DNA from: a plasmid
Sequence record: NZ_MK262712.1
DNA length: 64,000 nt
Reading direction: 5' to 3' (one strand)
Positions within the stretch are counted from its first letter, which is position 1. The number at the start of each line of letters is the position of its first letter. A program made the translations under genes and the position numbers. Of the stretch, positions 5,621-29,604 are shown piece by piece. Under the pieces are notes generated by a model that saw nothing but the letters and a program-made list of their open reading frames with translations, was not told the origin of the DNA and searched no databases.

Positions 5621-5639
5621 GAGCCCATTCGTTCAGGTA

Positions 5640-7048: not shown

Positions 7049-7053
7049 AAATT

Positions 7054-7480: not shown

Positions 7481-7573
7481 GGATCGCCCCGACCATCTTT
7501 TGTCTCAAAGGGTACTCCCACCGTGGCAGGCGGGAGGGGAATTTGAATTGACGCGCTAGCGTTAAAGGAACAT

Positions 7574-7972: not shown

Positions 7973-8037
7973 CTGTTGACTCCGTGATGTACATATGGTT
8001 ATTTATACAGGTTATCTCAATACACACTGAATGCAAA

Positions 8038-9225: not shown

Positions 9226-9326
9226 GCCGTTAAGCGAGGAACCGGGCAATGCGGTAACGCGTTGCTACCCTACAAAGGGAATCCCCTTCCTGATTCACGT
9301 AGTGAGAAGGTGGGGGAGGATGTCAA

Positions 9327-10420: not shown

Positions 10421-10925
10421 TACCCCCCTACACTGTATTGAGGGTAGCTGACCTCTATTAGATACGTTGAATCTATGCCGAAAACGACGTCTCATGTTGA
10501 GTTTGAAAGTTGCATTAAATCGACTCCTGACAGTACTACTGGGAAAAGTAACTCTTCTAAAAAAGTTACTTTTTGGTAGTTTCTCCTCGAAGGTTTCGAG
10601 GCATGGTGTAAAGCACTTATGCCTCCTGGTAGAAGGTTCACTTTTTTCTCGCCATACAAACAATTAACAACGCTGAGTATCTTTCTATGTCTTATCATCT
10701 TTTCAGCCCATTGGTGCAATCTATATATTTTCACATAGTTGAATTTTATTTCTTCCAAATAAGGGTAGGGAAAATCGAAAAAGTTGATTTTTTTTTGGAC
10801 AGGTATATTTTCAACTTTAACGCCTGTTTTTGAGTTTGGTTACTCAGATGTCCAACCGAAAAATAGTATCTTGCACGTGCATAATTTTATGAAATAATGA
10901 TGGAAACAACCACTGGGGCATTTCA

Positions 10926-11774: not shown

Positions 11775-11794
11775 TCCGGATTTGTCAGTGAACG

Positions 11795-11826
11795 GAAAGG
11801 CCGGGTCTCCGGCCTCCTACTTTTAA
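11795..11826. terminator. Rho-independent terminator between convergent genes
   Basis: Hairpin AGGCCGG-gtct-CCGGCCT followed by CTACTTTT. Confidence 0.5.
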
Positions 11827-14800
11827 TTAATTGAATTACCAGTTACAGGATCAACGTAGACAGAGCCTACCTCACATACACTTGGTCTCGGAAGGTATGA
11901 ACAATCTACATTGTTGCCATTAATTGCCTGCACATTCTCTTCTCTCGCTTTGGTCATATTGATACTACCCCCCATCGACTCCAGTGTTCGCTCCGAGGAC
12001 AATTGCGCCTCGTTATTTTTATATGGACCCATATTAGCTACAGAACTCTCTGTGAATGCTGCGTATTCATCCGGGACTTCCCCCGCGACAACTGCTGATT
12101 CAATATACTCAGTCATATCTATTTTATCCCAGTCAAGTTGCTGGACCTGTGAGATAGTTAATCCCACACAACCACTTTCTACAGGATTAATTCCCAATTG
12201 CGGATATGCCTGCTGCATTATTACCCTTGATAATAAAGAGTTATAACAGCACATGTCGGTTGCTTTTTTAATGCACTTCTTAGTGAAGCCAACGTTGAGA
12301 TATTTAACGCAACGATCTGTATCAATAACAAAACATGCCCCTTGGTTTTTGTGAATTGACGCTTCCATCTCTTTTTGGTCACAAGCCAGAAGCATTTCGA
12401 GAAGCATTTTTGTGATTTGATAAGCAGTATATATCCAACCAACTATGTTTAAAGCTAACATAAAATTCTGAACAGCACTTGAGAAAACTGCCTGTCCAAG
12501 TTGTGTGGTGGCCGTCTTATCAAACACAAAGTCCCTGATTGCATCGGGCAACATATCGTAAGCTTTATTCATCAACTGCTGTTTTATTGCAGCGAGACCG
12601 CCGGTCTGTAACCCATCTTTGGTGAGCTCTGTTGTAACAGCTGAACCTCCCCCTTCAACTGTTGAAGAGCCAATAAGTCTCGAGACGTTTCCTGCTATTG
12701 ATTCATAAGCAGAAGTTAGTGGTTCAGTCACGCGTTGCCACATTTGGCCCACGCTTGAAGATACACCGGAGGTCCATTGTCCGACAGAGTTCGTCATCGA
12801 TGCCCACGTACCTGACTCACCACCAGTCCAGGTTGTCAGCTTTGCTGATATTTTTTCCCAGTTTGTGTTTCTGAGCATTGTCCCGGCTAAGATAATTGCC
12901 TCTAGTTTTCCGGCTGCACCTTTAGGAGCTTCGCAGCAATCTGTTTTTGCCAACCCGTTTACAAAGCCTACAGAACGGCCACACCATTGCTTCTCTCCGG
13001 AGAAGACAATGCAACTATTGGGGTCGTTAGGGTCACTACACATAGCATCGCCCTGCATGTTCTGAACCATGCTGCTATAGGCTGCGACCTTACCGAAATC
13101 ACTGTTTTGTTCATTCGCACCGGTATTACAAGTACCTCCTGAACATGGGATCATGCCTACGCAGGTGTTTGCTTCGTTTGTTACTGTCACAGTCCTTGTT
13201 ATTCCTTCATCACAGGTCCACTTTTGTTCGTACATGTAACATTGATTAGTAGCAGAATCGAACCATCCCTCAGCGCATGTTTGACTGGACATAGTGCATG
13301 CAGAGTTTGTAGAGTATTTTGAACATGCATCAGGCATATTCTTTATCTGGTCATAATTGTAACAAGCCTCATTGCCATTCTCATCTTTAAGAATATTTCC
13401 TGATGCATCATACTGACATAATTTTTCTTTCCCTAACGGATCGCAAAAATATCCTTCTAGATTAGTTTTCCAGGTTAAGTTACCTTGGTCTCCTTCATAT
13501 AAAGGTGATGCATATTGCAATATCGATTGTGGTAAACGTTTAGTGCCTACATCAAGATCGGCAAAACGATCAAACCTGCAAAATGAACCTGTTTGTTTAA
13601 CAACATCGTAGCAGCCAGGTGGGTCCTGTATATGTTTATCTTCAAGTTTGATATTTTCAAAAATTAGTTCTACTTCAAAGTACCCTTCACCGTTACCCCC
13701 GACCCATACAGTAGATGACATTTCAACTTCGTGGTCACTTTCTTTGTACACGGATTCTGAAACTTGGCGCGTTATATCAATAGGTTCCTTTAATTTATTC
13801 GATTTATTTCTCTCCATGCCATTACGTGGTGGGCCATAACCAGGTTCGCGATATTCACCATCGATATGAGCAAAAATCTGCTTGCCATCAAGATTAACTT
13901 GCATGTGGTCATCCCACTCAGCATTTACTATGCTTGCTGATTTTAAGATAGCGTCCTGGTGGAAATGAAGCGTCATGCTATTGTCATAAACACCACCAGA
14001 CCAGTAGTCATTACCACGCTTTCCGAACCAGATACGTATACAGTTATCGCCACATACGCTTAGGTCACCATTACCACCAGAGATGTAAACTGGTACACTG
14101 AAGTCACGTGTAATAGTGCAACTACCATAATTATCTTTTTTAGGTGCGTTACAGTAATATTCCTTATAATCAGGAATATGTTTTTCTTTTGTTGTAGTTG
14201 TGGTCTGTGTTGAACAGTTTTGCAACCATTGACCCGTACCAGCCGCTGCGTTTGCTATTTCATTTCTGCCACTTGTAAACATTGGGTCATTTGGCGAAAT
14301 ATTAGGGGCTGGATTGGATTTTGTTGCAGCCACCAGCGAACGATATGCTTGCCCATCATAACTATTAGCAGTGAATAATTGACTCTTACGAGTTTTTATA
14401 TCGTTAATGAATCCTTTCTCGTCACCATAACTATCACCAGCATTAAACTGAACATCAGCATTATTTTGCTCTGAACTATACATTTCAGCTGTATTGGTAC
14501 TAGTGATCGCGCCTCCAGGATTGGGGTTGTTACTTATAGATATACTTCCATCCTGGTTACGTGAAAGTAACTTTCCACCGTTTTCTGAACCTTTTATGTT
14601 TATATTATTACCGTTCATGTTGGGTAGCATTACCGTACCAGCGATGTCCGAACCATCAGTTTTGGCATAATTCAAAACATCATCATTTGTGAATGTTTTT
14701 CCACCATATTTCTTCAGGTCCATTGACGAACTGTTAGTACTATCAAAACCATTTATTTTGTCGGTATAAGAAGGATTTTCACTATTCTTATATTTTTCTA

Positions 14801-15008
14801 AAATGTCCTCTGTAGTTACTGTTGAAGTTCTGTTCGCTGCAGGATTAGCAAGATCAAAATTGTTTTCCAGTTGTTCATAAATTTCGTTTGCCGCATATAC
14901 TTTCGGTGCCATCACAATATTGAGAAGCGTGACATAATACGCCCAACTGAGCGTATTAGTTACGATTGACACAGCTACGGCTAAGGAAACAGCCCTTTTA
15001 AATATCAT
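11823..15008 (-). CDS. trhN: TraN-like mating-pair-stabilisation protein (TrhN-like), 1061 aa
   Basis: Signal peptide, very Cys-rich secreted protein, position and size match TrhN of H-type plasmids; assigned by synteny (trhP-trhW-trhU-trhN). Confidence 0.65.
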   Translation of the reverse strand: MIFKRAVSLAVAVSIVTNTLSWAYYVTLLNIVMAPKVYAANEIYEQLENNFDLANPAANRTSTVTTEDILEKYKNSENPSYTDKINGFDSTNSSSMDLKKYGGKTFTNDDVLNYAKTDGSDIAGTVMLPNMNGNNINIKGSENGGKLLSRNQDGSISISNNPNPGGAITSTNTAEMYSSEQNNADVQFNAGDSYGDEKGFINDIKTRKSQLFTANSYDGQAYRSLVAATKSNPAPNISPNDPMFTSGRNEIANAAAGTGQWLQNCSTQTTTTTKEKHIPDYKEYYCNAPKKDNYGSCTITRDFSVPVYISGGNGDLSVCGDNCIRIWFGKRGNDYWSGGVYDNSMTLHFHQDAILKSASIVNAEWDDHMQVNLDGKQIFAHIDGEYREPGYGPPRNGMERNKSNKLKEPIDITRQVSESVYKESDHEVEMSSTVWVGGNGEGYFEVELIFENIKLEDKHIQDPPGCYDVVKQTGSFCRFDRFADLDVGTKRLPQSILQYASPLYEGDQGNLTWKTNLEGYFCDPLGKEKLCQYDASGNILKDENGNEACYNYDQIKNMPDACSKYSTNSACTMSSQTCAEGWFDSATNQCYMYEQKWTCDEGITRTVTVTNEANTCVGMIPCSGGTCNTGANEQNSDFGKVAAYSSMVQNMQGDAMCSDPNDPNSCIVFSGEKQWCGRSVGFVNGLAKTDCCEAPKGAAGKLEAIILAGTMLRNTNWEKISAKLTTWTGGESGTWASMTNSVGQWTSGVSSSVGQMWQRVTEPLTSAYESIAGNVSRLIGSSTVEGGGSAVTTELTKDGLQTGGLAAIKQQLMNKAYDMLPDAIRDFVFDKTATTQLGQAVFSSAVQNFMLALNIVGWIYTAYQITKMLLEMLLACDQKEMEASIHKNQGACFVIDTDRCVKYLNVGFTKKCIKKATDMCCYNSLLSRVIMQQAYPQLGINPVESGCVGLTISQVQQLDWDKIDMTEYIESAVVAGEVPDEYAAFTESSVANMGPYKNNEAQLSSERTLESMGGSINMTKAREENVQAINGNNVDCSYLPRPSVCEVGSVYVDPVTGNSIN

Positions 15009-15017
15009 CTTGACCCC

Positions 15018-16055
15018 TTAACCAAGCCACCTTACGCAGCAATCGTTATAACGCCAAAGCATGTATACATAGTTATTTACACCTATACGTTTTCGTCCGC
15101 CCTTCCGTGTCGACCAGTCATGAACAGAATCACCAAGTCTATGACAACATTCCGGTCCTTCTGCTTCCGGTACGGGATACAGCATCGATAGCCTGTACTG
15201 TGATCTAGGCATGAAATAACTGAACCTGCGTTCGCACATAGCGTCCTGGCCCATGGTTTTCATCAACATTCCTTGCCTGTGCAACTTGGTAATCATTCGT
15301 TGAGTTAATAATGAGGAAACCCGGACTGAATCGTCATTCGCAAAAACATGGCCGGTTAGCGGATAGAGGTTACCATCACAACCTGCACAAAAGTGGGCAC
15401 TCAGATTGTCAGCCCCAGCTGTAACCTTCACACAGTCAGCTGCGCACCACATTGAAGCAATAGGATTTGCGAAAACAACTGCCTCAGGATTTAATACGAG
15501 TGTAAGCAGGTCATTTTCCCAGAGCGGATCAACTTCGCTAATGTAGGTAAGAGACGGGTCAATATAAGGCTCAGCGGTACAATCCCCCATAATGAGGAGC
15601 TTAAGCATCACTAGGATCGGAAACTCCCATAAGTGAACATCATAAAACCCTGCCTCATTACCCCCTTTGGGCCTGTTAGTTGCTCCTTTCCCCATATCGA
15701 AGCTTGAAGACTGAAGACTAACCCCTTCAAGGAATGGCGAACACCATGGTGACTGTACAACCTCTACTATTTTTACTGGTTGGAAAAACGACAGTTGCCA
15801 TCCTACCTCTGGGACCCCATTTTGATCTGTGCAATAACATACGGGTTGTGACGGTGCAGCCCCTTCTGGTGAGGAGCCTACTCCCATAATGCGCATTGGA
15901 AAAATACAGCTCCAACAGATGTTTTTAATCAAACCTTTCCAAACACCGGCCGATTGACAGATTCCGCTACCCGTCTCAGCCCCAATCGCCATTCCTGGTA
16001 AAGCCAGGCTGAGCATGACAGCAGTGAATGCTGACAAAAGTAACTTTCGTATCAT
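15018..16055 (-). CDS. trhU: TraU-like T4SS protein (TrhU)
   Basis: Signal peptide and the TraU hallmark ICWSCIFPMRIMG. ATGA overlap with the upstream gene. Confidence 0.8.
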   Translation of the reverse strand: MIRKLLLSAFTAVMLSLALPGMAIGAETGSGICQSAGVWKGLIKNICWSCIFPMRIMGVGSSPEGAAPSQPVCYCTDQNGVPEVGWQLSFFQPVKIVEVVQSPWCSPFLEGVSLQSSSFDMGKGATNRPKGGNEAGFYDVHLWEFPILVMLKLLIMGDCTAEPYIDPSLTYISEVDPLWENDLLTLVLNPEAVVFANPIASMWCAADCVKVTAGADNLSAHFCAGCDGNLYPLTGHVFANDDSVRVSSLLTQRMITKLHRQGMLMKTMGQDAMCERRFSYFMPRSQYRLSMLYPVPEAEGPECCHRLGDSVHDWSTRKGGRKRIGVNNYVYMLWRYNDCCVRWLG

Positions 16056-17413
16056 TGAGCCGCCTCTTTTTCTGATTGCTGATTTATACGCGTATACTCG
16101 CGTACATCTGCCTGAGCAAACTGCTGTACTTTGAAGTAGGTTCCTTCAACCGATATGATTGTAGGGGTGGACTTAATCAGGAACCGGCTAATGATTTCAG
16201 GGTTGATCTTGTACATCTGCCCATAGAACTGGCCGCGCAACTCCTCTAAATGCTTCCAGCCATCATCACGTTTGATTCGCGTAAAAATGGGCATAACTTT
16301 TCCTTCGCCGAAACGGTGACGAAACTGTATTTTGGCCCATGTCAGCTGCTCAGAATTCATTGGGTCAAAAACGATCATTGTCAGTTTCTGTGGAAATTGA
16401 GCAAGAGGATTTCCCTTCTGCCCTGCGGCAGCAATGAGGTTACCTTGGTTATCTCTAATATCTTGGTTTACCTGAATTGTTGGGTCGATATACCAGATTT
16501 TATTCTCGTCAGATACGGGAAGGGACGCCATCCACTGATTTTGCCAAGTTGATTTTATTGCGTTCTTTTTGGCCGCCTCCCAGTCATATTTATTACTTCT
16601 CTCCTCAAGTTCCTGTACAATACTTTTCTCTTTTATAGGGAATGTTTGGGCTGAAACCGGGAAGGTTGTTTTTTCTGGGTTTTCCTCGATCTGTTTCATG
16701 AAATACTTAATGTTAATCGACCCACTAATCTTGTAGGTTTTATCATCTTTTCTGTACACCATCGTTGGAACTTCTTTTACGCTATACTGGGTAAAACTTT
16801 CCGGATCGAGGGTGACTAAAGGTTCTTTTTTTATTTTTGCTTTAGATATATAATCACGCAGCACTACCTGCATCTGAATAAGGTTTTCTACACCTTCCTT
16901 AAGCCCCCTGAACACCACGCGCGCATTGTTTTCCGATGCTGTTTTAATCAGGTCTATCAATACATAGTCTGGCATGCTGAATGATGCAAATATTGTCAAG
17001 CCATTATCAGTCGATAGTTCTTCATTTTTGTTGTTATCTAATTTACGTTCGAAGTCCTGTGCAGTAATCCCCGACTTCCCAAACATTTTTTCAACGTTGG
17101 AAGACTGGGTTCGCATTGACTCGTTTTTTGACTTGTTAATTGTGTCTGCCTCTTCAGAGAAGGCCTCTGTAGACTGATTCTTTTTTATGTCCTGCGCAAT
17201 ATCACTCATCGCTTCCACTTCACGCAGCTTACCTGTGTGTTCTATCACCGCACGCACACTGTCGGAGACAGAGCTGGGATTGTACCGGGGTGTGCCGACA
17301 ATCGACTCTATGCTTTGAGTCTTTGCATGATCAATAGAGTCATCGGCATATGACAGAGATGTAGCTAACAGGCAGCTAAAAAGTAACTTTTTAATACATT
17401 CAGAAGATGGCAT
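16052..17413 (-). CDS. trhW: TraW/TrbC-fusion-like T4SS protein (TrhW-like)
   Basis: Size and position match the H-type TrhW, which fuses TrbC and TraW. A likely signal peptide starts at MPSSECIKKLLFSCLLATSLSYA (start 17413). The ORF track extends to 17488. Confidence 0.6.
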   Translation of the reverse strand: MPSSECIKKLLFSCLLATSLSYADDSIDHAKTQSIESIVGTPRYNPSSVSDSVRAVIEHTGKLREVEAMSDIAQDIKKNQSTEAFSEEADTINKSKNESMRTQSSNVEKMFGKSGITAQDFERKLDNNKNEELSTDNGLTIFASFSMPDYVLIDLIKTASENNARVVFRGLKEGVENLIQMQVVLRDYISKAKIKKEPLVTLDPESFTQYSVKEVPTMVYRKDDKTYKISGSINIKYFMKQIEENPEKTTFPVSAQTFPIKEKSIVQELEERSNKYDWEAAKKNAIKSTWQNQWMASLPVSDENKIWYIDPTIQVNQDIRDNQGNLIAAAGQKGNPLAQFPQKLTMIVFDPMNSEQLTWAKIQFRHRFGEGKVMPIFTRIKRDDGWKHLEELRGQFYGQMYKINPEIISRFLIKSTPTIISVEGTYFKVQQFAQADVREYTRINQQSEKEAAQ

Positions 17414-18061: not shown

Positions 18062-21000
18062 TCAGTTATTCAACGTAATGAAACTTGTCGCTGAATCACC
18101 GCTGTCATCGTAAGCAGTTATAGACACCACCAGCTTACCCTTATTTTGAGCTTTGGACAGTGTTGCAGTACTTCCGAACACACCACGAACCTGATCATTC
18201 ACCTTCCAAACATAACTGGAAATCTTGCCGTCAGGATCACTGCATTTTGCAGTAAATGCCCAGCTCAGTTGCGTTTCAGTGTATGTCAGGTTACATGTAG
18301 GAGGCGTGTTCGGTATCACGTCAAAATCAACCACAACAACCCCTCTCTGACCCTGCGTACTGACAACGTCCATTTCCAGTTTATAACTACCTTCCATGAT
18401 GTTCTCAAACGTCTGTGACCAGTAATTTTTGCCACCATCGACAGGCTTACCATTCAGCTTAAACGTCACATTGTCAATTGAGTCTGCCGAGTGGGCCAGC
18501 TTAACACTGGACCTCAAGGACAGGTCCAGCGGGGCCCTCATGAACTTGTTAGAGTATTTGGGAGTAACGCTAATTTCCATCGGACTCTGTTCGTTCACGA
18601 TAAAAGTGTAATCAACCCGGGCTTCATTGTTCCTGTTATCCTTCAGGACATACGTCAACGTATGTGTACCCGATTTTGTTACCTGGAACACTTTCGTCCC
18701 GTTATTGTCGCTGGACAGCGTCATCATATTTTTGTCGTATTGCCAGTCCTGGGTGAACACAACTCCAGGATAAGAAACATCCACACCAGAGACTGATACG
18801 GTGAGTTCCGAAGGTATCATGGTGTATTTCAGTTTTGTATTCAGGCGTGGCTCCGGGAATTTGTATACCCAAGATTTTACGCTGATTTTCCGTTTTGCTA
18901 TGGTTCTGTCTTTTGCCTCCGGCATGTAGGCCTGATACGTAAACGTTGCATACCCACGTTCATCTAACATGTCTTCGGTCAGGACGGTATCAAGCAGCCC
19001 CCCCTGTTTTACGCTTCCATCAGGGAGCACCCACTCCTGGACAACTTTAGCATCAGATGAGTACTCGATATTAGGGTTCGTGTAGGTACCCTGCAAAGTA
19101 ACTTTTTTACCTACCTCTACCTGCGAGTTCCCCTCAACCTTAACCGACAATTTCTTATGCTTAATGACAGTGACACGAGCACGAGTTTCTTTCCATGCCG
19201 ATTTCCCGGCCATTTCGTCGGTTTCGGTATACCGTACTTTTGCAAAGATATACTTGGGCACCTCCGAGGACGTAATCATGTATTTAACCCCCCCCTCAGT
19301 CCATTCCTCTCCATCCTCTGACCACTGGACTTCAACTGCACTACCTTGTACATCTTCATTGTTATCAGTCAGTGTCACCGGGATGCTGTGCCCCTCAAGA
19401 ACCTTTCCAACCGAGATAACAGGTTTAGGTTCCCGGTAAGCAACCACCGTGAGATTATCGGTATATGAGACCTTACCTGTGTATTTGTTGGTCAGTTTGG
19501 CGCGGTAAAGCCACTTACCTACTTCTTTTTGTTTGATGCTTACGCTTCGAAGTCCGGTCATATCTTCAAGCGTATTCCAGGTTGATCCATTGTTACTGGA
19601 CATCTGCCATTCAGTTGGACTCAGGGAATCATAATCATCGGTACTTTTCGTTCTGAATGAGACCATTGCTGACAGAGGAACTCGGCCTACAATAAGCGAT
19701 TTAGACAGCCCACCTTCGAGGTTGGCCCCTTTATACACCCTGATACTTGTTGTTGATGTCTCACGTTTGAGTACAAAATCTTTAAACGGACTGCGTACCG
19801 TAGCTACTGCGATGATGCGGTGACTACCCAGAGTCAGATCGTCCATGTTGAGCTCACCGGTCGCAATCCCCTCAGAGTTAACGGGCAGATCACCGGTCAG
19901 AGGAGTTCGCTCAGTTACCGAAACATCTTTACCGGTTTCTTCATCCGTAACCCATTTAGAGGTAACTTTGTAAACCACCACATCCCACTGCCCCATTGTG
20001 GAGGCATCGTACAATGTACAGTTACAGCTGTTATTCCATTGGCCGATGTTTACCGATACCGGTACTTTCAAACTCGTTGCTGATTTACGCTCTGCAACTT
20101 TCATATAGGCACGAATACTGAAGTTTGGAACAGTATAAACTTTGAGCACACTGGATGACTTTATACTGGCTTCATTTTCGTAGGAAGCTTCGATGTTTAC
20201 ATTCGTTTGCGTCCACAATGGCGCTGCAGGTACTTTTATACGCTCAGAATAAGTTACCGGCGTATCACCACCTGATTTATTCTTGTAGGTTTTAGTTTCA
20301 GCGTCCTGGCCTTCAACCTTAGTTGTAAGGACAACGTTAGCCGGTACTGATTTTGCAAGCACCTTAGCTGCGTCCCCACCAGTGATATAAACCAGTGCTG
20401 TATCCTTACCAAGAGTCTCTACCGTTTTACTCATCTTGTATGAAATTTCAGGTGCAAACGGTTCAACGGCTTTAACGGTTTTACGGTTATGAGTGGCAAT
20501 GGCTTTAGAGCCTTTTGTATTAATCACATAGACGTTGTAGTCAAGGACGTTATCGCCAACTTTAGAGAAGTAACCCGTCAGGCCAGGAACTTTAGACTTC
20601 GAGTAAAATTCGAGACCAGATGGAACGTTGTTCCACTGAACATAACAGGCCGTTCCATAAACCGCAGTTCCGAACTGGCTAAGAAACGCCTGAGCGTCTT
20701 CTTCAGTAGAGAAAATCTTACAGGTATTCCCTGATTGCTGAGTAACCAGCGAAGTGTAAGGACGGACGTAACCGTAAATCGTAGACGCTGATTCGATGGA
20801 CTTCAGAGTGAAAGTCATCGGCATATAGGTAAAATCGATTGAATAGGTTTTGGATATACCGTTAACATTCTCAGCAACAACCGTCAAAGTATGGACTTTG
20901 TTTGTTTCGAGTGACGGCATCGGCTTTAACCGGTAGATCCCTTTGACGTTTGTGGGAGTGTATGAAGCCATGACGTTATCAATGACAACGCTCTTGATGT

Positions 21001-22303
21001 CGGCAACACCCTCTTCGCCCTGGAATGCAGCAATAACGATCTCATTCAGGAAGTACACCTGGTCCCGCTTAACAAGCTCTGAGCCGTCCTTGAAAACGGA
21101 AACAGATGGTTCATCAGACAGTATAAGTTTAGATTCCGGTTCGGTATAACTGGAATCATTGCCCGCTGTATTAGACACAGAATATGTTGCAACGTAAGAA
21201 GCGCTGGCCAGATCGCTTATATCAAAAAAATAAACAAATTTACCCGCAACTTCCTGATATCCGGCGACAGGTTGAAGAGTTCGACGGGACGGAGTTGACC
21301 AAATTTTGTTAAAATTAAGCTCCGTACCATCATCTAAAGTAACTTTTGTCATTGGAGAGAAGCTACCATCAGGAGCAAGTGTGAGCGACATTGCAGCAGG
21401 TTTCCACCAGTCATTGGTATCTGACCGGGCAGGAACCGAGACAGCTACAGCGATCGTCTGCGGAGCAACGTAGATATCTTTATCTCCGATCTTGAATGAC
21501 CGAGCTTCTTTAGAGACGTTCCAGAAGGTATTGTCTATCGCTGGAGCGCGGTAATCCCAGCTTAATCTCACCTTAGAGGTTACTGGTGGGGAGAAGTAAT
21601 TATTGAACGAGTTTAAGGTTACGCCTACATCCCTGCTTCCGAAATCGGAACCCCCATCACTGATGCCTACGCTTCCGGTCGTTATAGAACATTTTGAGGC
21701 TCCTGCAGCAATGGCGCAGGATGTCCCAGAACCGACAGACGCGACCATATCGTAGTCTCGGGGTTCAACGGTTATATCAATATTTGAGAGTGTCTCGTTT
21801 TTAATGTATGACGTCAGTGTTGAACCGGAAGAACCGTTGCTCATTGAACCTTTTATAGAAGTAATCACAGGAGCTACAGGCGCAACAGTCTTGAAGTTGT
21901 ACTCCCCTTCCTTGACTATGACTTTTTCACGTTCTGAGCCCGAGTAGTAAACGATTTGCCATGGAAGTTTGATATCCCCAGCTATGGCAGGGATGCCCTT
22001 CAGTGAGAACCCATTAGCAATCGGCATACCGGAATTATTAGGTAACCATTCAAACACACATTTCAGGCTACCAGCCGTACTTTTGACATTAGGATCAGAG
22101 GACACCTCGCATCCCTCAGATACCGGAATAGCTGTAACCGTACTTTCTTTCACGAAGGCCGTATTTACTTGTGAACTGGTAGAAAATTTGACATCTGGTA
22201 ATGACGTTTCCAGGGTACCGGAAACCATTATCGATTCTGCGTTTGAAAAAGCACTGAACACAGAACAGAACATCAGGAAAGAGATTTTATTAATTTTAGT
22301 CAT
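18062..22303 (-). CDS. Giant exported Ig-like (Big-domain-type) surface protein, 1413 aa; possibly RSP-like
   Basis: Signal peptide MTKINKISFLMFCSVFSAFSNA. Long beta-rich Thr/Ser/Val-rich sequence with recurring ~90-100 aa Ig-like segments. An RSP-like identity is recalled from IncHI1 plasmid R27, not verified. Confidence 0.55.
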   Translation of the reverse strand: MTKINKISFLMFCSVFSAFSNAESIMVSGTLETSLPDVKFSTSSQVNTAFVKESTVTAIPVSEGCEVSSDPNVKSTAGSLKCVFEWLPNNSGMPIANGFSLKGIPAIAGDIKLPWQIVYYSGSEREKVIVKEGEYNFKTVAPVAPVITSIKGSMSNGSSGSTLTSYIKNETLSNIDITVEPRDYDMVASVGSGTSCAIAAGASKCSITTGSVGISDGGSDFGSRDVGVTLNSFNNYFSPPVTSKVRLSWDYRAPAIDNTFWNVSKEARSFKIGDKDIYVAPQTIAVAVSVPARSDTNDWWKPAAMSLTLAPDGSFSPMTKVTLDDGTELNFNKIWSTPSRRTLQPVAGYQEVAGKFVYFFDISDLASASYVATYSVSNTAGNDSSYTEPESKLILSDEPSVSVFKDGSELVKRDQVYFLNEIVIAAFQGEEGVADIKSVVIDNVMASYTPTNVKGIYRLKPMPSLETNKVHTLTVVAENVNGISKTYSIDFTYMPMTFTLKSIESASTIYGYVRPYTSLVTQQSGNTCKIFSTEEDAQAFLSQFGTAVYGTACYVQWNNVPSGLEFYSKSKVPGLTGYFSKVGDNVLDYNVYVINTKGSKAIATHNRKTVKAVEPFAPEISYKMSKTVETLGKDTALVYITGGDAAKVLAKSVPANVVLTTKVEGQDAETKTYKNKSGGDTPVTYSERIKVPAAPLWTQTNVNIEASYENEASIKSSSVLKVYTVPNFSIRAYMKVAERKSATSLKVPVSVNIGQWNNSCNCTLYDASTMGQWDVVVYKVTSKWVTDEETGKDVSVTERTPLTGDLPVNSEGIATGELNMDDLTLGSHRIIAVATVRSPFKDFVLKRETSTTSIRVYKGANLEGGLSKSLIVGRVPLSAMVSFRTKSTDDYDSLSPTEWQMSSNNGSTWNTLEDMTGLRSVSIKQKEVGKWLYRAKLTNKYTGKVSYTDNLTVVAYREPKPVISVGKVLEGHSIPVTLTDNNEDVQGSAVEVQWSEDGEEWTEGGVKYMITSSEVPKYIFAKVRYTETDEMAGKSAWKETRARVTVIKHKKLSVKVEGNSQVEVGKKVTLQGTYTNPNIEYSSDAKVVQEWVLPDGSVKQGGLLDTVLTEDMLDERGYATFTYQAYMPEAKDRTIAKRKISVKSWVYKFPEPRLNTKLKYTMIPSELTVSVSGVDVSYPGVVFTQDWQYDKNMMTLSSDNNGTKVFQVTKSGTHTLTYVLKDNRNNEARVDYTFIVNEQSPMEISVTPKYSNKFMRAPLDLSLRSSVKLAHSADSIDNVTFKLNGKPVDGGKNYWSQTFENIMEGSYKLEMDVVSTQGQRGVVVVDFDVIPNTPPTCNLTYTETQLSWAFTAKCSDPDGKISSYVWKVNDQVRGVFGSTATLSKAQNKGKLVVSITAYDDSGDSATSFITLNN

Positions 22304-22430
22304 GGAACGCTCTGATCGTAGTTATGCCATAGTTACATCTAATGTATCCTATGAACAGAGCGTATTTTTCCCATTAAGGGAAGTATCTTCATTGAAATTC
22401 CCGTAAAACGGGAATGGCTGGACAGAAAAG

Positions 22431-22970
22431 TTACTTTTGTAGTTGAGCATTTGCATTAAGACGCATGCACGTTAGAACCGCGTCAGATGGAACCCCTGGA
22501 TTTCGGGCCAGTATGACGGATAAGAGGAAAAGACCTAAGCGAAGGCAGGCGGCAGGATCAATACTAATTTTATGTATAAAGTTAATGTCTCGCTCGTCTT
22601 TGTTGATAGCTACAACGCCCCCCTCCAACATTGCTGTGGATTTACCATCAAAAGTAACTTTTACGTTTTTGTAGACTTGCTTATTATGGTGCTTTGTTTT
22701 TTTATCTTTCAGAACAGCCTCACGAGTAAGGCGAAGAAACGCCATACACAAAGCGATCACTTCATCATCACTCAGCTTTGTTGAAAAGGCCTTTTGCCCA
22801 GTCCAGTCAAACGCGCCCGGCTTAGATGCTAAAGGCCCAGCAAGGATAAGATTCACACTGCCATTTGTCTCAGAATAATTGAGCTCAAGTGCAGTCTTGC
22901 CGGAATTAAATACCTTTTCATTTCGGTAAGGTTGATGCTGTGGAACATCATTATTTATATTTTCCACCAA
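22431..22970 (-). CDS. Hypothetical protein, 179 aa
   Basis: ORF in a three-gene minus-strand cluster, no recognised motif. Confidence 0.4.
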   Translation of the reverse strand: MVENINNDVPQHQPYRNEKVFNSGKTALELNYSETNGSVNLILAGPLASKPGAFDWTGQKAFSTKLSDDEVIALCMAFLRLTREAVLKDKKTKHHNKQVYKNVKVTFDGKSTAMLEGGVVAINKDERDINFIHKISIDPAACLRLGLFLLSVILARNPGVPSDAVLTCMRLNANAQLQK

Positions 22971-23437
22971 ATATGTCCTTCACCTTCGTTGATTAAATCC
23001 TTCACCAGACCAATGTAGGTATTCCCTCCAGATTGCTTCATCGCAAAAATATAAGCACTGGTCTCTAGCATTAGATAGTCTCCCGATGGAGCACCAGGTG
23101 GAACCTCTGTAGAGCTAAGACTTTTAATGTACTCCTTTTTAACAATAGAAGGAATGTTGTTTATCATTATTGTTTTTTCATCAACGATCTTAAAATTCAT
23201 ACTGGTTTCAGCGCCCGCCAGACTTACGGCATGAACCGAGTTTTGCTTAAAGCTCGACAGGCTTGGTTTATTCATAGTTAGAGAATAAATACCTAGCAGG
23301 GTAATAAGTGGAACTATGAAGAAACTAACTTTTTTAATACTCACTATCTTCATCGTCATCAAATCCCCCTTGGGTCTGGCATGCAGTAATGTAAAGAATT
23401 CTAAGTTGATGTAGGAAATTTTCTGCTGTAGCACCAC
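22955..23437 (-). CDS. Hypothetical exported/membrane protein
   Basis: Likely start MTMKIVSIKKVSFFIVPLITLLGIYSL (about 23362), with an N-terminal TM or signal segment. Confidence 0.4.
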   Translation of the reverse strand: MVLQQKISYINLEFFTLLHARPKGDLMTMKIVSIKKVSFFIVPLITLLGIYSLTMNKPSLSSFKQNSVHAVSLAGAETSMNFKIVDEKTIMINNIPSIVKKEYIKSLSSTEVPPGAPSGDYLMLETSAYIFAMKQSGGNTYIGLVKDLINEGEGHIWWKI

Positions 23438-23792
23438 CTACAAATGTTATCATTCTGTTAATTCTGATGCCTGCATCTTCAAGTTCAAACTCAGCTATTC
23501 CACAATCCGACATTATTGTCATCGTGTTTTCATCTGGGTCTTCATCAAGCGAAGGGGGTATAATAATGGATAAGATAACAGTATCTACTGGAGCTATTTC
23601 CCAATTGTGTTCCTCTCGGGCCATAGGAATTATCTGAATAAAATACCCATCCAGGATCAAAGAAAGTGGATTGCGGGTGTTGTCAGCAAACCCAAAATTA
23701 CTGGTTGCTTCTTCGAAGTTTAAGCCAGAGCGCTCAATAATCTTGAGAAGTTCCTGCTTTCGTACCCCATGGTAAATCATGCCATCTGTCAT
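23334..23792 (-). CDS. Hypothetical protein with acidic C-terminus, 152 aa
   Basis: ORF. The C-terminus is GGFDDDEDSEY. Confidence 0.35.
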   Translation of the reverse strand: MTDGMIYHGVRKQELLKIIERSGLNFEEATSNFGFADNTRNPLSLILDGYFIQIIPMAREEHNWEIAPVDTVILSIIIPPSLDEDPDENTMTIMSDCGIAEFELEDAGIRINRMITFVGGATAENFLHQLRILYITACQTQGGFDDDEDSEY

Positions 23793-24475
23793 CTGTAGTT
23801 ACTCATGTGCTTTGATGGATAGTGTGTCGCTAAAAATCATACCAAAAACAAAGTATTCCTACCTCAGCCAGAGTGAGAAAAAGTTAACTTTCGCTCTGAA
23901 CCTGTAGGTTTATCTAATCTTAGCTTAACATGTAAGCTACCGATATCTGCACCGCTCATAATTCTAAGGGCTCGTATTATTCACTTGTTGAACTAGATCA
24001 TCAATCGAAAGGAACACATTACAACGCGCCAAAAGTTACTTTTATCAGAATGCACACAATTTAGCTCGAATAAGAATCTGGATTGTGATTTGGTAACAGG
24101 ATCTTTAACTTTAGCAATCAGAGTATGCCTTGCTTTTACATTGCAGTATCACCATTTAAAACAATAAGTTATAACGAAACACCAAGTGTTTGATAACATG
24201 CATTTTCACTGGATCTGCGCTTACGAATGTGGCACTGAGGCAATTCTTTAACCTTGTAAAGAATGAGTGAGCCCGCGCTGGAGGTCAGACCTTTGGTTGC
24301 ATTTAAACCACGTGTGTTACATGCCTACATGGGAATGATTCTCATCAACTATTAAAAAGTCACTTTTACATAAATCTAACAATGTACTGAAAAAAAATAT
24401 TGTAAAAATAGCTTTTTTCCTCTCTGGCGACGTCATCACATCCCTCATAAATGTATGATCACACAGAGGTGATAA
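23793..24475. promoter_or_regulatory. 680-bp AT-rich divergent promoter region carrying palindrome-motif copies
   Basis: Separates divergent operons. Contains AAAAGTTACTTTTA (24031), AAAAAGTCACTTTTA (24355) and the near-match AAAAAGTTAACTTT (23878). Confidence 0.45.
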
Positions 24476-25279
24476 ATGACTATTCTTTCAAATCTAAGTA
24501 TTGACCTTACTGATTTTACAGGACGAATTCTTATCGTCAGTGACCTTTATGGACATTTTGAACTGTTACTCAAGGGCCTTTCAAAACTGACCCAGTCCGG
24601 TGATGAAGTGGTTGTTATAACTACTGGTAATTTGTTTGACTGGGGCCCTTCCCCCTGTCAGCTGCTTGAGGCAGTGGTTTACAAAAAATTTGGTGACAGG
24701 AAAGTTCATTTTTTCACTGTGGTAGGTTTTCATGAATTACTTATGACAGATGCTATTACTCAAAAGTACCTTAAAACCTTCAGGTACTTTCCGGATACAC
24801 ATACTCGTAAACACTGGAGAAGTTTAGGTGGAAGCTGGCATGACTCTTACGACCAGATTTTGCTTGAACGTGATATTTATAAAATCGATTACCCACTGGT
24901 AATAAATCTCAAAACAAAACTAGGAACATACATAATTGGTTCGTCAGATATCCCCCACGATGGTGGTGACTGGAACACTCTCATGGCAACCTTGAACAAG
25001 TTGGATAACCAAAACTTACGCATTATGGCGAGTAATATAACCAGAACTAGGTATTTTCTAGAATCAGGAAAGACAATTGATGATATATCGCTTGTAGTAT
25101 TAGGAGTGCATCAACCTGATCAATTAAAACGAATTCTCTCAGGGCAAACTGAACTAGCTAAATCAACCTTGTGTCTGTTCCCTAACAACTGGGATGGACT
25201 CTCAAATGCACCACTGGATTTCAAAATTAGATTTCTTGACATCACTGAAAGTGAATATGGGAGTTGCTATGAGTTTTAA
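24476..25279 (+). CDS. Degenerate lambda-phosphatase/PrpA-like metallophosphoesterase-fold protein (probable pseudo-phosphatase)
   Basis: It aligns to the three N-terminal metallophosphatase motifs with substituted ligands: SDLYG for GDxHG, GNLFDWG for GDxxDRG, VGFHE for GNHE. Confidence 0.5.
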   Translation: MTILSNLSIDLTDFTGRILIVSDLYGHFELLLKGLSKLTQSGDEVVVITTGNLFDWGPSPCQLLEAVVYKKFGDRKVHFFTVVGFHELLMTDAITQKYLKTFRYFPDTHTRKHWRSLGGSWHDSYDQILLERDIYKIDYPLVINLKTKLGTYIIGSSDIPHDGGDWNTLMATLNKLDNQNLRIMASNITRTRYFLESGKTIDDISLVVLGVHQPDQLKRILSGQTELAKSTLCLFPNNWDGLSNAPLDFKIRFLDITESEYGSCYEF

Positions 25280-25985
25280 GAATTTAGCTTGTGTTATCTT
25301 ATTGTTACCAAACGCAAGCTACGTAATGGCAGGCTCTCAGCTCCAGCTAAGTTCTAATGTTATGGTTGACCAGAAAATGAAAAACATTGTTGTCCAAACA
25401 AGTTATTTTAAAAACAAAATTGACAACACAAAATTTATTCGAATTAGCAATCACACAAGATCATTCCCATTAATCCTCTCCTTACCGGAAATTAAATACT
25501 CTGTCATCATAAAAAATGGACACAGTACGCTTCTCTCAGAAGATGATGGCATGATTTGGGTAGAACCTGGGAGTAACGTCATACTAAAAATTAAAGAAGC
25601 TGAAAAACTCTACGATTTCATTCCAATAGTCTACATTACAGGGAAAAAGAAACCAAATGTACTTACTGTTTTACCCGGTAAAGCAATTAGTGCTGCAAAA
25701 GAGACAAAGCTAATTGAATATAAAGTTTCACCAAATCAAAAAAGAATGTCACATGATGACAAGGTTGTTAAGCTATCAGGCTTTGGTAATATAAATAAAC
25801 TGAAGAAAGGTTTTTATGAAGTACAGGTCGACAAATTTACTTCTGTGAGCTTTGATAAGGAGGCTTTTATAATTACCCGAAATAATATGCTTGCGGGATC
25901 ACAATATTACACTAAAAATCTTGTTGCCTATCCGCATGAAAAAATAATAATGAACATTAGCGGAGAAACTCATGTTGAAAAATAG
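25268..25985 (+). CDS. Exported hypothetical protein
   Basis: Signal peptide MSFKNLACVILLLPNASYVMA. Overlaps the upstream stop, so operon-coupled. Confidence 0.5.
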
Positions 25986-26472
25986 TCTGATGTTCCTTGT
26001 AATAATTTTACTAACAGCTTGTCAGCACCCCCCAGGATGGCATAAAACGCTACCCGCGATTAACTTTAGCCCTGTTAAAACAGTTGAAATGACAGGGAAG
26101 GTTACAGGGGAATATTCTGTTCGCGTAGTCAATGCAGGTATCGACGTATATATAATAATTGACAATGGTTATAATGAGTTTATGACTGTAGATAAACTTT
26201 CCTTATACGGGAATCGTTGCGGATATGAGTCTCAGGGGGAGTTGCTCATTCCTCCCGCTGCAGTCAGTACATATATGGTTCCTAATGTAGCATTATTAGG
26301 TCTGTGCTATACAGATGATATAAAGTTGATTTTCATTAACAATACATTCAATGGTTTGTCCAAGGATAAGAAGGATACAACTGTCCCTATTGAAGTGATG
26401 ATGCAGTTTAAGCTTACTTCTGCTAAAGAAAAAGAGGAATTTAATGATGTTATTTATAGCTCGTGGAATTAA
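25972..26472 (+). CDS. Lipoprotein, 166 aa
   Basis: Lipobox LLTAC|QHPPG. Overlaps the neighbouring genes. Confidence 0.5.
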   Translation: MLKNSLMFLVIILLTACQHPPGWHKTLPAINFSPVKTVEMTGKVTGEYSVRVVNAGIDVYIIIDNGYNEFMTVDKLSLYGNRCGYESQGELLIPPAAVSTYMVPNVALLGLCYTDDIKLIFINNTFNGLSKDKKDTTVPIEVMMQFKLTSAKEKEEFNDVIYSSWN

Positions 26473-26860
26473 AAAAGTTTGCTTAGCTGGATTCGCTATT
26501 GTTCTGACAACAAGTGCATCATGGGCCTTTACCTATACGATTGACTCAAATCCCCAAGGAGCTGTAGTCATTAATGTGATCACAAAGGAAAGAATGGGTT
26601 TGACACCAATTAAAGTGGATATACCAGATACACAGGAAGGAAAAACATTTGGTATCCTTTACAAAGACTACCGAAATGTTGCCCTCATGATATACAAACC
26701 AGCACCAACCGCAGAGAGAGCTTTTACTAATAGTCCACCCGTTGTGGTCACTAGCGCTCTTCCTGGTGAATATCCCTTAAGTGTAAATATTGATGAAGTA
26801 CGGGATAAAGTTGTTGTGGATTTGCGTCCAGTCATGTCACAACCTGTTACTTTACAATAA
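26444..26860 (+). CDS. Exported hypothetical protein, 138 aa
   Basis: Signal peptide ...VCLAGFAIVLTTSASWA. Confidence 0.45.
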   Translation: MMLFIARGIKKVCLAGFAIVLTTSASWAFTYTIDSNPQGAVVINVITKERMGLTPIKVDIPDTQEGKTFGILYKDYRNVALMIYKPAPTAERAFTNSPPVVVTSALPGEYPLSVNIDEVRDKVVVDLRPVMSQPVTLQ

Positions 26861-26886
26861 AAAAGGGGCTTATGCCCCTTTTCTCT
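26859..26886. terminator. Bidirectional rho-independent terminator
   Basis: GGGGC-ttat-GCCCC hairpin flanked by an A-run and a T-run, between convergent genes. Confidence 0.6.
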
Positions 26887-29604
26887 TTAAGCAACCTGCC
26901 TTGTTTTCATGCCTAACTGTACTAGCTCTTCTTCATAAACCCTGTCAATTGCTTCGGCATACGTATATCCGTCATTAACAAGGTTCCATATTTTACGTCG
27001 GTCAGACGGGTCTGTAGTAAAACAAAGTTCCATTTTACGATCAACATAAAGACGGACGATTTGTTGCACGTTCTCAAAACGAATCATAATCTCTGAAAAA
27101 ACATACTTTACAGTCCTGATCATCTTCATCCGTTCATATTCTGATGCTGATGCTGAAATATATTTATTTTTCTCCATTGAATCAATCGCCTCTGGGCTCT
27201 GCTTCATAATAAATTTCCATGGTGAGTTGTTGGCTATCGCTACACCGATTGGCGACTTGTAGAAGTCTTCGAAGCTCTGTGTAATACAGATCCCTGCACA
27301 GTTTGTTTTACGGAAACGACGCCATGCTGCTTCAAGGAATTTAGTAAAAAAGTTAACAGCAGCATCATCACCATTACTTTCGCCGATATACTCCCAGGCC
27401 TCATCAAGTATAAACAAACGACGACGACCATCCTTTTTAATAAACATAGCATGCTGTGCTGCCTGGATTATCGACATTAACACAACCCACTGAAGATGTG
27501 GTGTAGGTTTGAGTTCTTCAAGTTCAAGTACAATGAAGCGGCTATTAAAATTAATGGGTGGCAATGATGTTGTAAACCTCCTACCGTAAATGCCGCCTTC
27601 ACACCAAGGTCCAAGTTGAATGCCTATATCTTTAATTTCTTGTTTCTCATGCTTCATGCATTTTTTAGCGAAGCCAGTAACTGAAGGAAGATATCCATCT
27701 TCAGGGCTATTTGATTCCTCAGCAATAAGACGAAGCATTACTGCTTCCTGTAAAGAACTAATGTTACCATTACTTGAAGCCATTAGTTTTAGTTGATTCA
27801 GAACCATGATTGTTTGAGCAATAATGTCTGATTCTTTACTTTCTTCGCCTGAATTTCCCGTTAATCCCTCCAATGATTCATCTCCTGTATATTTTCTCAC
27901 CAGGAAAGCGAAAGGGTTAAGAGAAAAGGTAGCGTCAACTCCAAAATCAATAAATTGAGAGTCCTCAAATTGCTCAGCAAGCCCTTGATATGAACGTCCG
28001 ATATCAACAACAAACACCTGAGCACCATCTGGTGACGCATTAAATTTGCCATTCAGGTCCAGAGGCGGATCGTATTTATCTGCCGTAAGCAGATCTCTAA
28101 TATCATCAAAATGATAAAGCGGATTTATATGCTCGCCAGAACAAAGATAGTTGAGAATAATGTTGTTTGCTGCAAATGATTTACCTGCCCCTGAGGTAGC
28201 CCCAACGCATACGTTGTAACTGGCTGAAGTTTCGAAAATATCAATCATAACCAACTGTCCCTCGCGGGTTACAAATGGAATGACTGGATTTGTGGAGTTT
28301 CCTTTCCACGGGCCAAAGATAGGAGCTAGGTGAGCCGCACCCGTATTAGTCATTACATCACCACGATCCATATCTCTAAAAGTCGCCGGATCATTACATA
28401 AAGGTAAAGCCGACATGACACCTGAAAAACAAATATAACTATCATCAGCCACAACGATTTTTTTCTCGCTGTAATAGTTAATTAGACTTTTTGCAGCTAT
28501 TTTCACTTTTTCCAGTGTATTATCCATGACGATAAATGTCATGTAAGTTTGTAGTAGTTTAGCTTTATCCTCCAACTCTCTAGTCAATGCCGAGTAATCC
28601 TTGTCCATATCGGCAAGGCGAGGAAGATATTTTAAAACAATAGGTATTTTTGACTGATTATCTGTTATCGCTTTATAACGAAGATACTCTTTCTGTATTT
28701 TCTTTTGATGTGGGAATTGTATACAGAAGTTGATAATAAAAGGAGAGAAAATGGTTTTGCTTCCAGTCATCCAGTCAACAACCAACTCGTAAACAGCACC
28801 AAAGTTGACATATTCAGGGAATTTTGTCATCGACAAATGCTTAAAATATCGTTGAGCTGTCTCATCATCATCAGCAGACAATGACGCGAAATAATCCTCC
28901 CCCACCTCATATTTCCTTCCTGGAATGTTGACCTGATTATTTAATGGCATTAATGTACTAGCTTCAAGTCCACCATATTTCCATCTGGAGTCTTTTCCGG
29001 GGTTTAATATTTTATCAACACTGTACAACCATGTGTCAGCATTACCAACAATTGGTGACAAGGTTAAACCTTCTAGTTTAGATAGAAGGTCTTTAAAAAG
29101 GCCATCCAGTCGCATGGATTCGGATTCATTAGGAGAAAAACCTTTAATAGGTATCCTAACCGTTACCCACAACTCGAAATTCCTAAGCTTCAAATCATCA
29201 GCTTGCGTGATCTTAATGCCATCAGCTTCTTTCAAAGGCTCATATTGACTTTTTGTCAGGTAATCCAGTGAGTATACGGTAAGGAGATCCGCTTTTTCAT
29301 TATCCCTACCTCCCATCCTGTTACCTCTGCGACGTAACCAACGGGACAATGATATGTTGACATCCGGTAAAGCAGCCAGTGTCATTTGCATAATGGACTC
29401 CGCAGGAAAATCCATTTTAAACAGATCCGTCAATAGGTTTTGTTGGTTATCATACAATCCAGGAGAAGGGTTGCAGACAAAAAAGAAACCTACCGCGTTA
29501 TCTTCCAGCAAAAAATAAGGGGCATCCACCATTCTGTCGACCACGGGAATGAAGTGCCCTAAGTTATATCTTTCAAGTTCTTTTGCGAGACGTGAATTGT
29601 TCAT
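26887..29604 (-). CDS. trhC: T4SS ATPase TraC/VirB4 (TrhC-like)
   Basis: Walker A GATSGAGKSF, Walker B RRLFILDEAWEY, size 905 aa. Confidence 0.9.
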   Translation of the reverse strand: MNNSRLAKELERYNLGHFIPVVDRMVDAPYFLLEDNAVGFFFVCNPSPGLYDNQQNLLTDLFKMDFPAESIMQMTLAALPDVNISLSRWLRRRGNRMGGRDNEKADLLTVYSLDYLTKSQYEPLKEADGIKITQADDLKLRNFELWVTVRIPIKGFSPNESESMRLDGLFKDLLSKLEGLTLSPIVGNADTWLYSVDKILNPGKDSRWKYGGLEASTLMPLNNQVNIPGRKYEVGEDYFASLSADDDETAQRYFKHLSMTKFPEYVNFGAVYELVVDWMTGSKTIFSPFIINFCIQFPHQKKIQKEYLRYKAITDNQSKIPIVLKYLPRLADMDKDYSALTRELEDKAKLLQTYMTFIVMDNTLEKVKIAAKSLINYYSEKKIVVADDSYICFSGVMSALPLCNDPATFRDMDRGDVMTNTGAAHLAPIFGPWKGNSTNPVIPFVTREGQLVMIDIFETSASYNVCVGATSGAGKSFAANNIILNYLCSGEHINPLYHFDDIRDLLTADKYDPPLDLNGKFNASPDGAQVFVVDIGRSYQGLAEQFEDSQFIDFGVDATFSLNPFAFLVRKYTGDESLEGLTGNSGEESKESDIIAQTIMVLNQLKLMASSNGNISSLQEAVMLRLIAEESNSPEDGYLPSVTGFAKKCMKHEKQEIKDIGIQLGPWCEGGIYGRRFTTSLPPINFNSRFIVLELEELKPTPHLQWVVLMSIIQAAQHAMFIKKDGRRRLFILDEAWEYIGESNGDDAAVNFFTKFLEAAWRRFRKTNCAGICITQSFEDFYKSPIGVAIANNSPWKFIMKQSPEAIDSMEKNKYISASASEYERMKMIRTVKYVFSEIMIRFENVQQIVRLYVDRKMELCFTTDPSDRRKIWNLVNDGYTYAEAIDRVYEEELVQLGMKTRQVA

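Follow-up and report, generated by a model that had tools for sequence, protein, structure and literature searches.

The four-gene operon beside trhC in an IncHI1B plasmid is very probably the IncHI Z operon and encodes a likely pseudo-phosphatase

In a 64,000-nt stretch of plasmid NZ_MK262712.1 (hereafter the window), the list of open reading frames (ORFs) places four overlapping + strand genes at positions 24476-26860. We conclude that these genes are very probably the IncHI1B (pNDM-MAR-type) orthologues of the Z operon of IncHI plasmids, an accessory transfer and entry-exclusion operon, and that the first of them, trhO, likely encodes a pseudo-phosphatase, with a lambda-phosphatase (PPP) fold, a degenerate metal site and activity predicted to be lost. 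The operon is already known, not new. The four genes are as follows.

24476..25279, + strand: trhO orthologue (R27 R0015), 267 aa, without a signal peptide
25269..25985, + strand: eexB orthologue (R27 R0016, 'orf16'), 238 aa, signal-peptide-like N-terminus, predicted all-beta
25972..26472, + strand: orthologue of R27 R0017 ('orf17'), a 166-aa lipoprotein
26444..26860, + strand: trhZ orthologue (R27 R0018), 138 aa, signal-peptide-like N-terminus

An earlier interpretation made from the letters alone (the sequence-only reading) had listed four overlapping + strand genes, phosphatase-like motif strings, an LLTAC lipobox and signal-like N-termini, and all of these are present. Its overlapping starts at 25972 and 26444 stand, but the one at 25268 is out of frame by one base and should be 25269. 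The ORF of the second gene spans 25194-25985, with further in-frame ATGs at 25194 and 25257; the in-frame ATG at 25269 is the RefSeq start and gives the 238-aa product.

Relationship of the four genes to the Z operon of R27

BLASTP comparison paired the four products, in order, with R27 R0015 trhO (29% identity, E=5e-29), R0016 eexB (25%, E=3e-15), the R0017 lipoprotein (33%, E=6e-35) and R0018 trhZ (43%, E=1e-31), and all four homologies were confirmed by tblastn against R27. The genes of R27, an IncHI1 plasmid (NC_002305), lie on the + strand at 20184-22897, where they are annotated as a metallophosphoesterase plus three hypothetical proteins. The supplement of PMC7366339 marks all of them '(Z)' and describes R0015 as trhO, a phosphodiesterase, R0016 as eexB, an exclusion protein, R0017 as a lipoprotein and R0018 as trhZ. 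RefSeq labels the window genes in the same way as those of R27 ('metallophosphoesterase' and three times 'hypothetical protein'); elsewhere the first gene is recorded as TrhO and the fourth as trhZ, and transfer-gene database entries for IncHI plasmids read trhO, orf16, orf17 and trhZ. TrhO (267 aa) and TrhZ (138 aa) are also tabulated for the IncHI1B plasmid pSIM-1-BJ01 (PMC6657655). Many IncHI1B/IncFIB (pNDM-MAR-type) plasmids of Klebsiella, pSCKLB555-1 among them, match the region at 100% identity, and the annotation of pSCKLB555-1 has the same coordinates as the window.

Gene order and orientation inside Tra2, read from the htdA side to the trhC side, are the same as those of the Z operon. 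In R27 the order is rsp-htdK-htdF-htdA-parR-parM-[four genes]-parB-parA-...-trhC, the operon being situated between parM/parR (18079-19834) and parB/parA (23081-25338), and this layout was also found in IncHI2 and pNDM-CIT-type plasmids. The window shares with R27 the four homologous genes, their divergence from htdA and their place on the trhC side of Tra2, as well as the predicted locations of the products (one in the cytoplasm, two with signal peptides and one lipidated). It differs in that the operon abuts htdA and trhC directly, with no ParMR upstream and no ParAB downstream. Because genes and neighbours match in R27 order, the window region equals the R27 arrangement minus both par modules, and this is the only structural difference from R27. 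A metagenomic IncHI-like locus (L004; Logan ERR4229067 contig, 1-16927) has the order rsp-htdK-htdF-htdA-parR-parM-[four Z genes]-trhC; ParMR is present and ParAB absent, an intermediate layout which suggests that each of the par modules was gained or lost on its own.

At the level of the proteins the divergence is considerable. Identity to the R27 products is only 25-43%, TrhO of the window has 267 aa against 323 aa in R27, and the EexB-like protein of the window lacks a stretch of ~35 residues located behind the signal peptide of its R27 counterpart.

The sequence-only reading had proposed a novel, lineage-specific four-gene operon in place of the Par1 and Par2 modules of R27, a proposal that we now find scarcely credible. 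Its observation that the partition locus is elsewhere was correct, in that ParAB of the window is encoded at 46998-49255 and no par genes flank the operon. However, all four homologues occur in R27, IncHI2 and pNDM-CIT-type plasmids in shared order and orientation, R27 itself carries the operon between its two par modules, TrhO homologues were found in 1966 plasmid records, and the proteins already go by the names TrhO and TrhZ. Three small minus-strand genes and a giant Ig-like gene had been regarded as further fillers of the same gap, but R27 has htdA/F/K and rsp in the same order. The value of these comparisons is mainly corrective: the region is standard IncHI backbone, and to catalogue it as a new operon would therefore be wrong.

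Loss of metal ligands in TrhO

TrhO residues 17-105 matched Pfam Metallophos PF00149 (E=2e-6, 28.8 bits against a cut-off of 21.5), and the only PDB sequence match was lambda phosphatase 1G5B (E=2e-5). An AlphaFold2 model built from a 17-sequence alignment was confident, with a predicted local distance difference test score (pLDDT) of 85 and a predicted template modelling score (pTM) of 0.86. It has an alpha/beta sandwich fold for which 1G5B was again the best Foldseek match (E=7.7e-11, TM 0.55/0.66). The phosphatase motifs noticed in the sequence-only reading thus align significantly, by Pfam as well as by sequence and fold match to 1G5B.

The motif strings of TrhO are SDLYG (residues 22-26), GNLFDWG (51-57) and GFHE (84-87). 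In place of the family motifs GDxHG, GDxxDR, GNH[DE], H and GH, the window protein has SDLYG, GNLFDW, GFHE, S and GVH. Catalytic positions were tabulated for nine TrhO-family sequences and eight canonical relatives, and are listed here in lambda phosphatase numbering.

D20 (motif I): canonical D; window D; TrhO family D in seven, N in two
H22 (motif I): canonical H; window Y; TrhO family H, Y, F, R or Q
D49 (motif II, bridging): canonical D; window N; TrhO family N in nine of nine
D52 (motif II): canonical D; window D; TrhO family D in nine of nine
R53 (motif II): canonical R; window W; TrhO family W, Y or N
N75 (motif III): canonical N; window F; TrhO family F, A, S or Q
H76 (motif III): canonical H; window H; TrhO family H in three only
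H139 (motif IV): canonical H; window S; TrhO family H in two only
Motif V His (GH): canonical H; window V, with a His one position later; absent at the aligned position in nine of nine

All eight canonical relatives retain D-H-D-D-R-N-H-H-GH. Compared with lambda phosphatase, TrhO of the window has H22 changed to Y, D49 to N, N75 to F, H139 to S and the phosphate-binding R53 to W, and its motif-V His is out of register. Of the six metal ligands, at least four and probably five are gone, and at most one or two are left (D23 certain, H212 doubtful). Similar loss was found throughout the TrhO family, R27 TrhO included, where motif I reads DPHG instead of DLYG and the motif-III His kept in the window protein is lacking. 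The structural positions G26, G51, D55 and E87 and a W..GG.W motif are invariant in the family, and TrhO shares the W...GG.W motif and the conserved D55 and E87 with 1G5B and with PrpA/PrpB of E. coli. Substitutions that vary between lineages over such a conserved frame look like relaxed selection on catalysis.

Because a confident lambda-phosphatase fold is combined with family-wide loss of metal ligands, TrhO is likely to be a pseudo-phosphatase, and we suppose that it would act as a non-catalytic cytoplasmic scaffold or regulator rather than as an enzyme. This agrees with the sequence-only reading, in which the first gene was lambda-phosphatase-like with substituted metal ligands, as sequence, fold and ligand table all indicate, and its product was probably a catalytically dead scaffold, which the fold and the ligand loss support.

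Alternatively, TrhO could be catalytically active, as a phosphatase or phosphodiesterase whose metal site is unusual, and could regulate transfer by dephosphorylating a substrate; we consider this unlikely. The protein does match the metallophosphatase family and fold significantly; the window sequence keeps D23, D55, H85 and E87, of which D55 and E87 are invariant in the alignment; and database annotations read 'phosphodiesterase', 'metallophosphoesterase' and 'Serine/threonine-protein phosphatase 2'. Ligand loss suggests inactivity but does not prove it, and the substituting Tyr and Asn could bind metal, points that also count against calling TrhO a pseudo-enzyme. On the other hand, most metal ligands are substituted, motif I varies within the family (DxY, DxH, DxF, NxR and NxQ) as does motif III (FH, AG, SG, AD and QQ), and every canonical relative keeps every catalytic position. 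Scores against the NCBIfam PrpA and PrpB equivalogs were just 26.8 and 23.5 bits, far below the cut-offs of 332 and 326.

A word-index search with TrhO returned only relatives of at least 70% identity, while an exhaustive search of 1.84 billion representatives gave 29 matches at E up to 0.001. Five full-length distant sequences among these (26-35% identity), together with R27 TrhO, make up the rest of the family; the remaining matches were fragments, or canonical phosphatases at E 1e-7 or weaker. Family-wide ligand loss suggests that the usual 'phosphatase' annotation of TrhO is misleading, and the pseudo-enzyme idea offers a cheap, testable hypothesis for trhO, a gene whose part in transfer has lacked an explanation since 2003. 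In eukaryotes, the retromer subunit Vps29 has a metallophosphoesterase fold that serves as a protein-binding scaffold. A phosphoesterase fold with a decayed metal site is the concept proposed here for TrhO, by analogy only, as the two proteins have no detectable sequence relation.

Exported products and entry exclusion

By inspection, the products of the second and fourth genes have hydrophobic, signal-like N-termini that are conserved in orthologues, and the third has a lipobox, LLTAC, with L-T-A-C at residues 14-17 and Gln at +2. The earlier assignment of all three as exported or lipidated proteins is borne out by these features. Cys17 of the lipoprotein is invariant in six orthologues, as are C83 and C112, which suggests that the latter two form a periplasmic disulfide. 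TrhZ is the best conserved of the four proteins, with a mean column identity of 68%. It may have a weak PEGA-like domain: four of five orthologues gave a consistent match to PEGA PF08308, though below threshold (best E ~0.01; 15.6 bits against a cut-off of 20.8), and a literal PEGA string occurs in R27 TrhZ. The EexB-like protein is the most divergent. No Pfam, NCBIfam or PDB sequence match was found for it, and its AlphaFold2 model was weak (pLDDT 58). Homology to multicopper oxidases or cupredoxins was considered and rejected, a Foldseek TM of ~0.4 indicating only 'two beta-sandwich domains' in an all-beta protein. For the three exported proteins together, there was no Pfam or NCBIfam family above threshold and no meaningful PDB sequence match, and these searches revealed no similarity to the exclusion families TraT, TraS, TrbK, Eex/SXT and Sfx.

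What the operon does has been studied in R27. The cloned Z operon gives recipients exclusion according to secondary sources, including PMC7366339, PMC11493245 and PMC8923210. The latter two state that EexA and EexB are required in donor and recipient alike (PMC11493245, citing Gunton 2008; PMC8923210), and that EexB is located in the outer membrane (PMC11493245, citing Gunton 2008). PMC11628540, citing Lawley 2003, credits trhO and trhZ with raising transfer frequency. The R27 operon is activated by TrhR/TrhY, counteracted by HtdA and shows no temperature response (PMC7366339); in an htdA mutant the four Z genes were up 8- to 17-fold (PMC7366339 supplement).

By orthology, the window operon probably has a role in entry exclusion and mating, as the sequence-only reading had proposed for envelope proteins encoded in a tra region. 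The operon would be transcribed away from htdA and end tail-to-tail with trhC at a shared hairpin; TrhR/TrhY would activate it and HtdA would keep its expression low, as in R27. Its exported products would act at the envelope as exclusion determinants, EexB from the outer membrane. A need for the Eex proteins in both partners implies like-with-like recognition between donor and recipient, which would abort redundant mating, and TrhO and TrhZ may in addition raise transfer frequency. Several known systems are comparable. TraT/TraS of F, Sfx of IncC, TrbK of IncP and pKPC_UVA01 and Eex of SXT are small, tra-encoded envelope proteins that make their host a poor recipient, and TrbK of pKPC_UVA01 is likewise required in donor and recipient (PMC11493245, PMC8923210). 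They differ from the present operon, which specifies up to three exported proteins, none with sequence similarity to them, and a likely cytoplasmic pseudo-enzyme.

Some considerations weigh against this interpretation. Exclusion by the IncHI1B operon is extrapolated across 25-43% identity, and the poor model of the EexB-like protein means that structure adds nothing for it. trhZ is putatively eexA, and EexA presumably lies in the inner membrane, but none of the sources cited here names the eexA gene. The R27 mechanism itself is drawn from secondary citations of Gunton 2008 and Lawley 2003. Furthermore, the R27 Z operon does not respond to temperature, unlike other tra operons (PMC7366339), so that its tie to mating may be looser than that of the core mating-pair formation genes.

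It is possible, though we lean against it, that the main job of the operon is mating-pair formation or stabilization in the donor, with exclusion a side effect of over-expression in the recipient; this would be compatible with its identity as the Z operon. According to PMC11628540, citing Lawley 2003, trhO and trhZ originally received their names as transfer genes, mutation of which lowers transfer frequency. The operon is situated inside Tra2 and is lost along with tra genes, and the donor requirement for the Eex proteins (PMC11493245, PMC8923210) points the same way. By contrast, the exclusion conferred on recipients by the cloned R27 operon, as secondary sources relate it, and the lack of induction at the transfer-permissive temperature (PMC7366339) weigh against this reading.

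IncHI1B/IncFIB plasmids are major Klebsiella carriers of NDM and of hybrid resistance-virulence traits, and their exclusion determinants are just 25-43% identical to the studied R27 proteins. Identity for TrhC and RSP is 51-56%, and the lower values for the Z products could reflect a separate IncHI1B exclusion specificity. If specificity does differ, this would affect which H-type plasmids can share one cell. The combined proposal, that TrhO, the first Z-operon gene product in all IncHI lineages sampled, is a conserved dead phosphatase acting as cytoplasmic scaffold or regulator for H-type transfer or exclusion, and that its fast-diverging exported partners may define an exclusion-specificity group of the clinically dominant Klebsiella IncHI1B plasmids, seems to us evenly balanced between being right and wrong.

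Distribution of the operon

The operon with its upstream spacer was found in 547 plasmid records, 541 of them covering at least 80% of it, and 516 of the 547 plasmids were typed as conjugative. Relatives thus carry the operon, in R27, in IncHI2 and across these records. The 1966 records with TrhO homologues (1773 typed conjugative) come from Klebsiella, Escherichia, Salmonella, Enterobacter, Citrobacter and others. The TrhZ family occurs only in IncHI-type elements of Enterobacterales. In Klebsiella, about 750 plasmids of ~190-280 kb, mostly non-mobilizable, have no operon and retain only an 817-bp htdK/htdF remnant of ~94% identity. The remnant corresponds to window positions 22327-23143, which cover htdK and a portion of the htdF-position gene, and it seems to be left over from a Tra2 region that was lost. 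The conjugative typing, together with the non-mobilizable plasmids that lack the operon, indicates that it travels with a working transfer system.

Insertion sequences (ISKpn26, IS5, IS903B and IS3) lie within or next to the operon in NZ_CP097191, NZ_CP082976, CP110583 and NZ_CP097224, plasmids that are otherwise identical; the operon is thus dispensable for plasmid maintenance. In CP138711 the annotation of the third gene is shortened and rsp is split.

Transcription unit and flanking genes

Successive genes of the operon overlap by 11, 14 and 29 nt, and a strong Shine-Dalgarno sequence, AGAGGTGA, precedes trhO. The gene overlaps, a single upstream spacer and a terminal hairpin are all compatible with one transcript. 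The two non-coding elements are the following.

23793..24475: spacer of 683 bp between the divergent htdA-like gene (AN operon side) and trhO
26861..26882: hairpin AAAAGGGGC-TTAT-GCCCCTTTT, within the 26 bp that separate the stop codons of the convergent genes trhZ and trhC

The spacer presumably holds the Z-operon promoter. On the + strand upstream of trhO, no sigma-70-like site was detected in a consensus scan, which would fit an activator-dependent promoter, as expected from the action of TrhR/TrhY on the R27 operon (PMC7366339). The hairpin was missed by the consensus promoter/terminator scanner and was seen by RNA folding (dG -14.8 kcal/mol, z = -3.4; none of 200 shuffles folded as well). 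It is a probable two-way intrinsic terminator for trhZ and trhC. An Rfam scan of 22000-27500 gave nothing meaningful.

The genes on either side of the operon are listed below.

18062..22303, - strand: rsp orthologue (R27 R0009), a 1413-aa Ig-like conjugation protein, 51% identity over 1407 aa
22431-22967, - strand: htdK-like gene, 179 aa, 26% identity to R27 htdK (tblastn, E=4e-10)
22955-23359, - strand: gene at the htdF position, named by position alone
23334-23792, - strand: htdA-like gene, 152 aa, 30% identity to R27 htdA (tblastn, E=1e-23)
26887..29604, - strand: trhC/traC ATPase, last gene of the AC operon, convergent with trhZ, 56% identity to R27 TrhC

The minus-strand genes at 22431..23792 are the start of the AN operon, which diverges from trhO. 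One plasmid record annotates the htdA-like gene as 'HtdA', and trhC is annotated as belonging to the TraC family. The gene at 22955-23359 showed no similarity to R27 htdF by tblastn (E<1e-3) and no match to a Pfam or NCBIfam family.

The GC content of the operon is slightly low, at 0.34-0.40. This could be taken as a sign of a defence or other cargo module that happens to lie within the tra region, and metallophosphatase-fold proteins do occur in some defence systems. That explanation retains next to no probability, however: none of the four proteins matches PADLOC, the GC content is like that of neighbouring trhC (0.40), and synteny is conserved across all sampled IncHI lineages.

A repeated palindrome in the window

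The palindrome AAAGTNACTTT (AAAGT-N-ACTTT), mostly in the longer form AAAAGTNACTTTT, has 33 exact sites in the window. Exact sites are also frequent in related loci, as compared with the mean of shuffled sequences.

Window, 64 kb: 33 sites, shuffle mean 0.3
R27 (L003), 50 kb: 15 sites, shuffle mean 0.06
IncHI2 locus (L006), 18.7 kb: 7 sites, shuffle mean 0.02
pNDM-CIT-type locus (L007), 14.3 kb: 5 sites, shuffle mean 0.08
Metagenomic IncHI-like locus L004, 16.9 kb: 5 sites, shuffle mean 0.04
Metagenomic IncHI-like locus L005, 4.4 kb: 3 sites, shuffle mean 0.04

Positions in the window include 22427, 24032, 24356, 36523, 36705, 36749 and 36854, and further sites are found at 52314, 54851, 57433, 58237, 58278 and 60365. 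Sixteen of the 33 are intergenic, against 5.6 expected. Six more lie no further than ~66 nt from a gene start, five of these within 30 nt, and several are at gene junctions inside operons. Palindromes precede trhA (four), trhO (two, at 24032 and 24356 in the upstream spacer), rsp and three tandem 801-aa Ig-like paralogues, as well as a PIN-domain gene, an HNH gene and a gene with a near-threshold ParB-HTH match. The paralogues, each with one palindrome 44-85 nt upstream of its start, are these.

49863-52268, - strand: 801-aa paralogue with DUF4165, Big_3_2 and Big_3_3 Ig-like domains
52407-54812, - strand: 801-aa paralogue with the same domains
54948-57353, - strand: 801-aa paralogue with the same domains

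A conserved operator of the Z promoter was considered as the meaning of AAAGTNACTTT and rejected. The palindrome occurs in the spacer of the window and of the IncHI2 locus and is absent from those of R27, the pNDM-CIT-type locus, L004 and L005; it is therefore not a conserved feature of that promoter. The literature searched contained no mention of it in a plasmid context. It may serve a plasmid-wide regulator as its operator, for which the KorB sites on IncP plasmids offer an analogy. The gene with the ParB-HTH match, at 39275-40453 on the + strand, encodes a 392-aa protein (Pfam E=1.6e-4, 22.2 bits against a cut-off of 22.6) and has one palindrome 112 nt upstream. Purely by inference, this protein is a candidate KorB-like binder of the palindrome.

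Window segments 5000-10000 and 44000-46000 have almost no palindromes. Their GC content is 0.45-0.53, against ~0.40 for the backbone, and they are probably accessory insertions.

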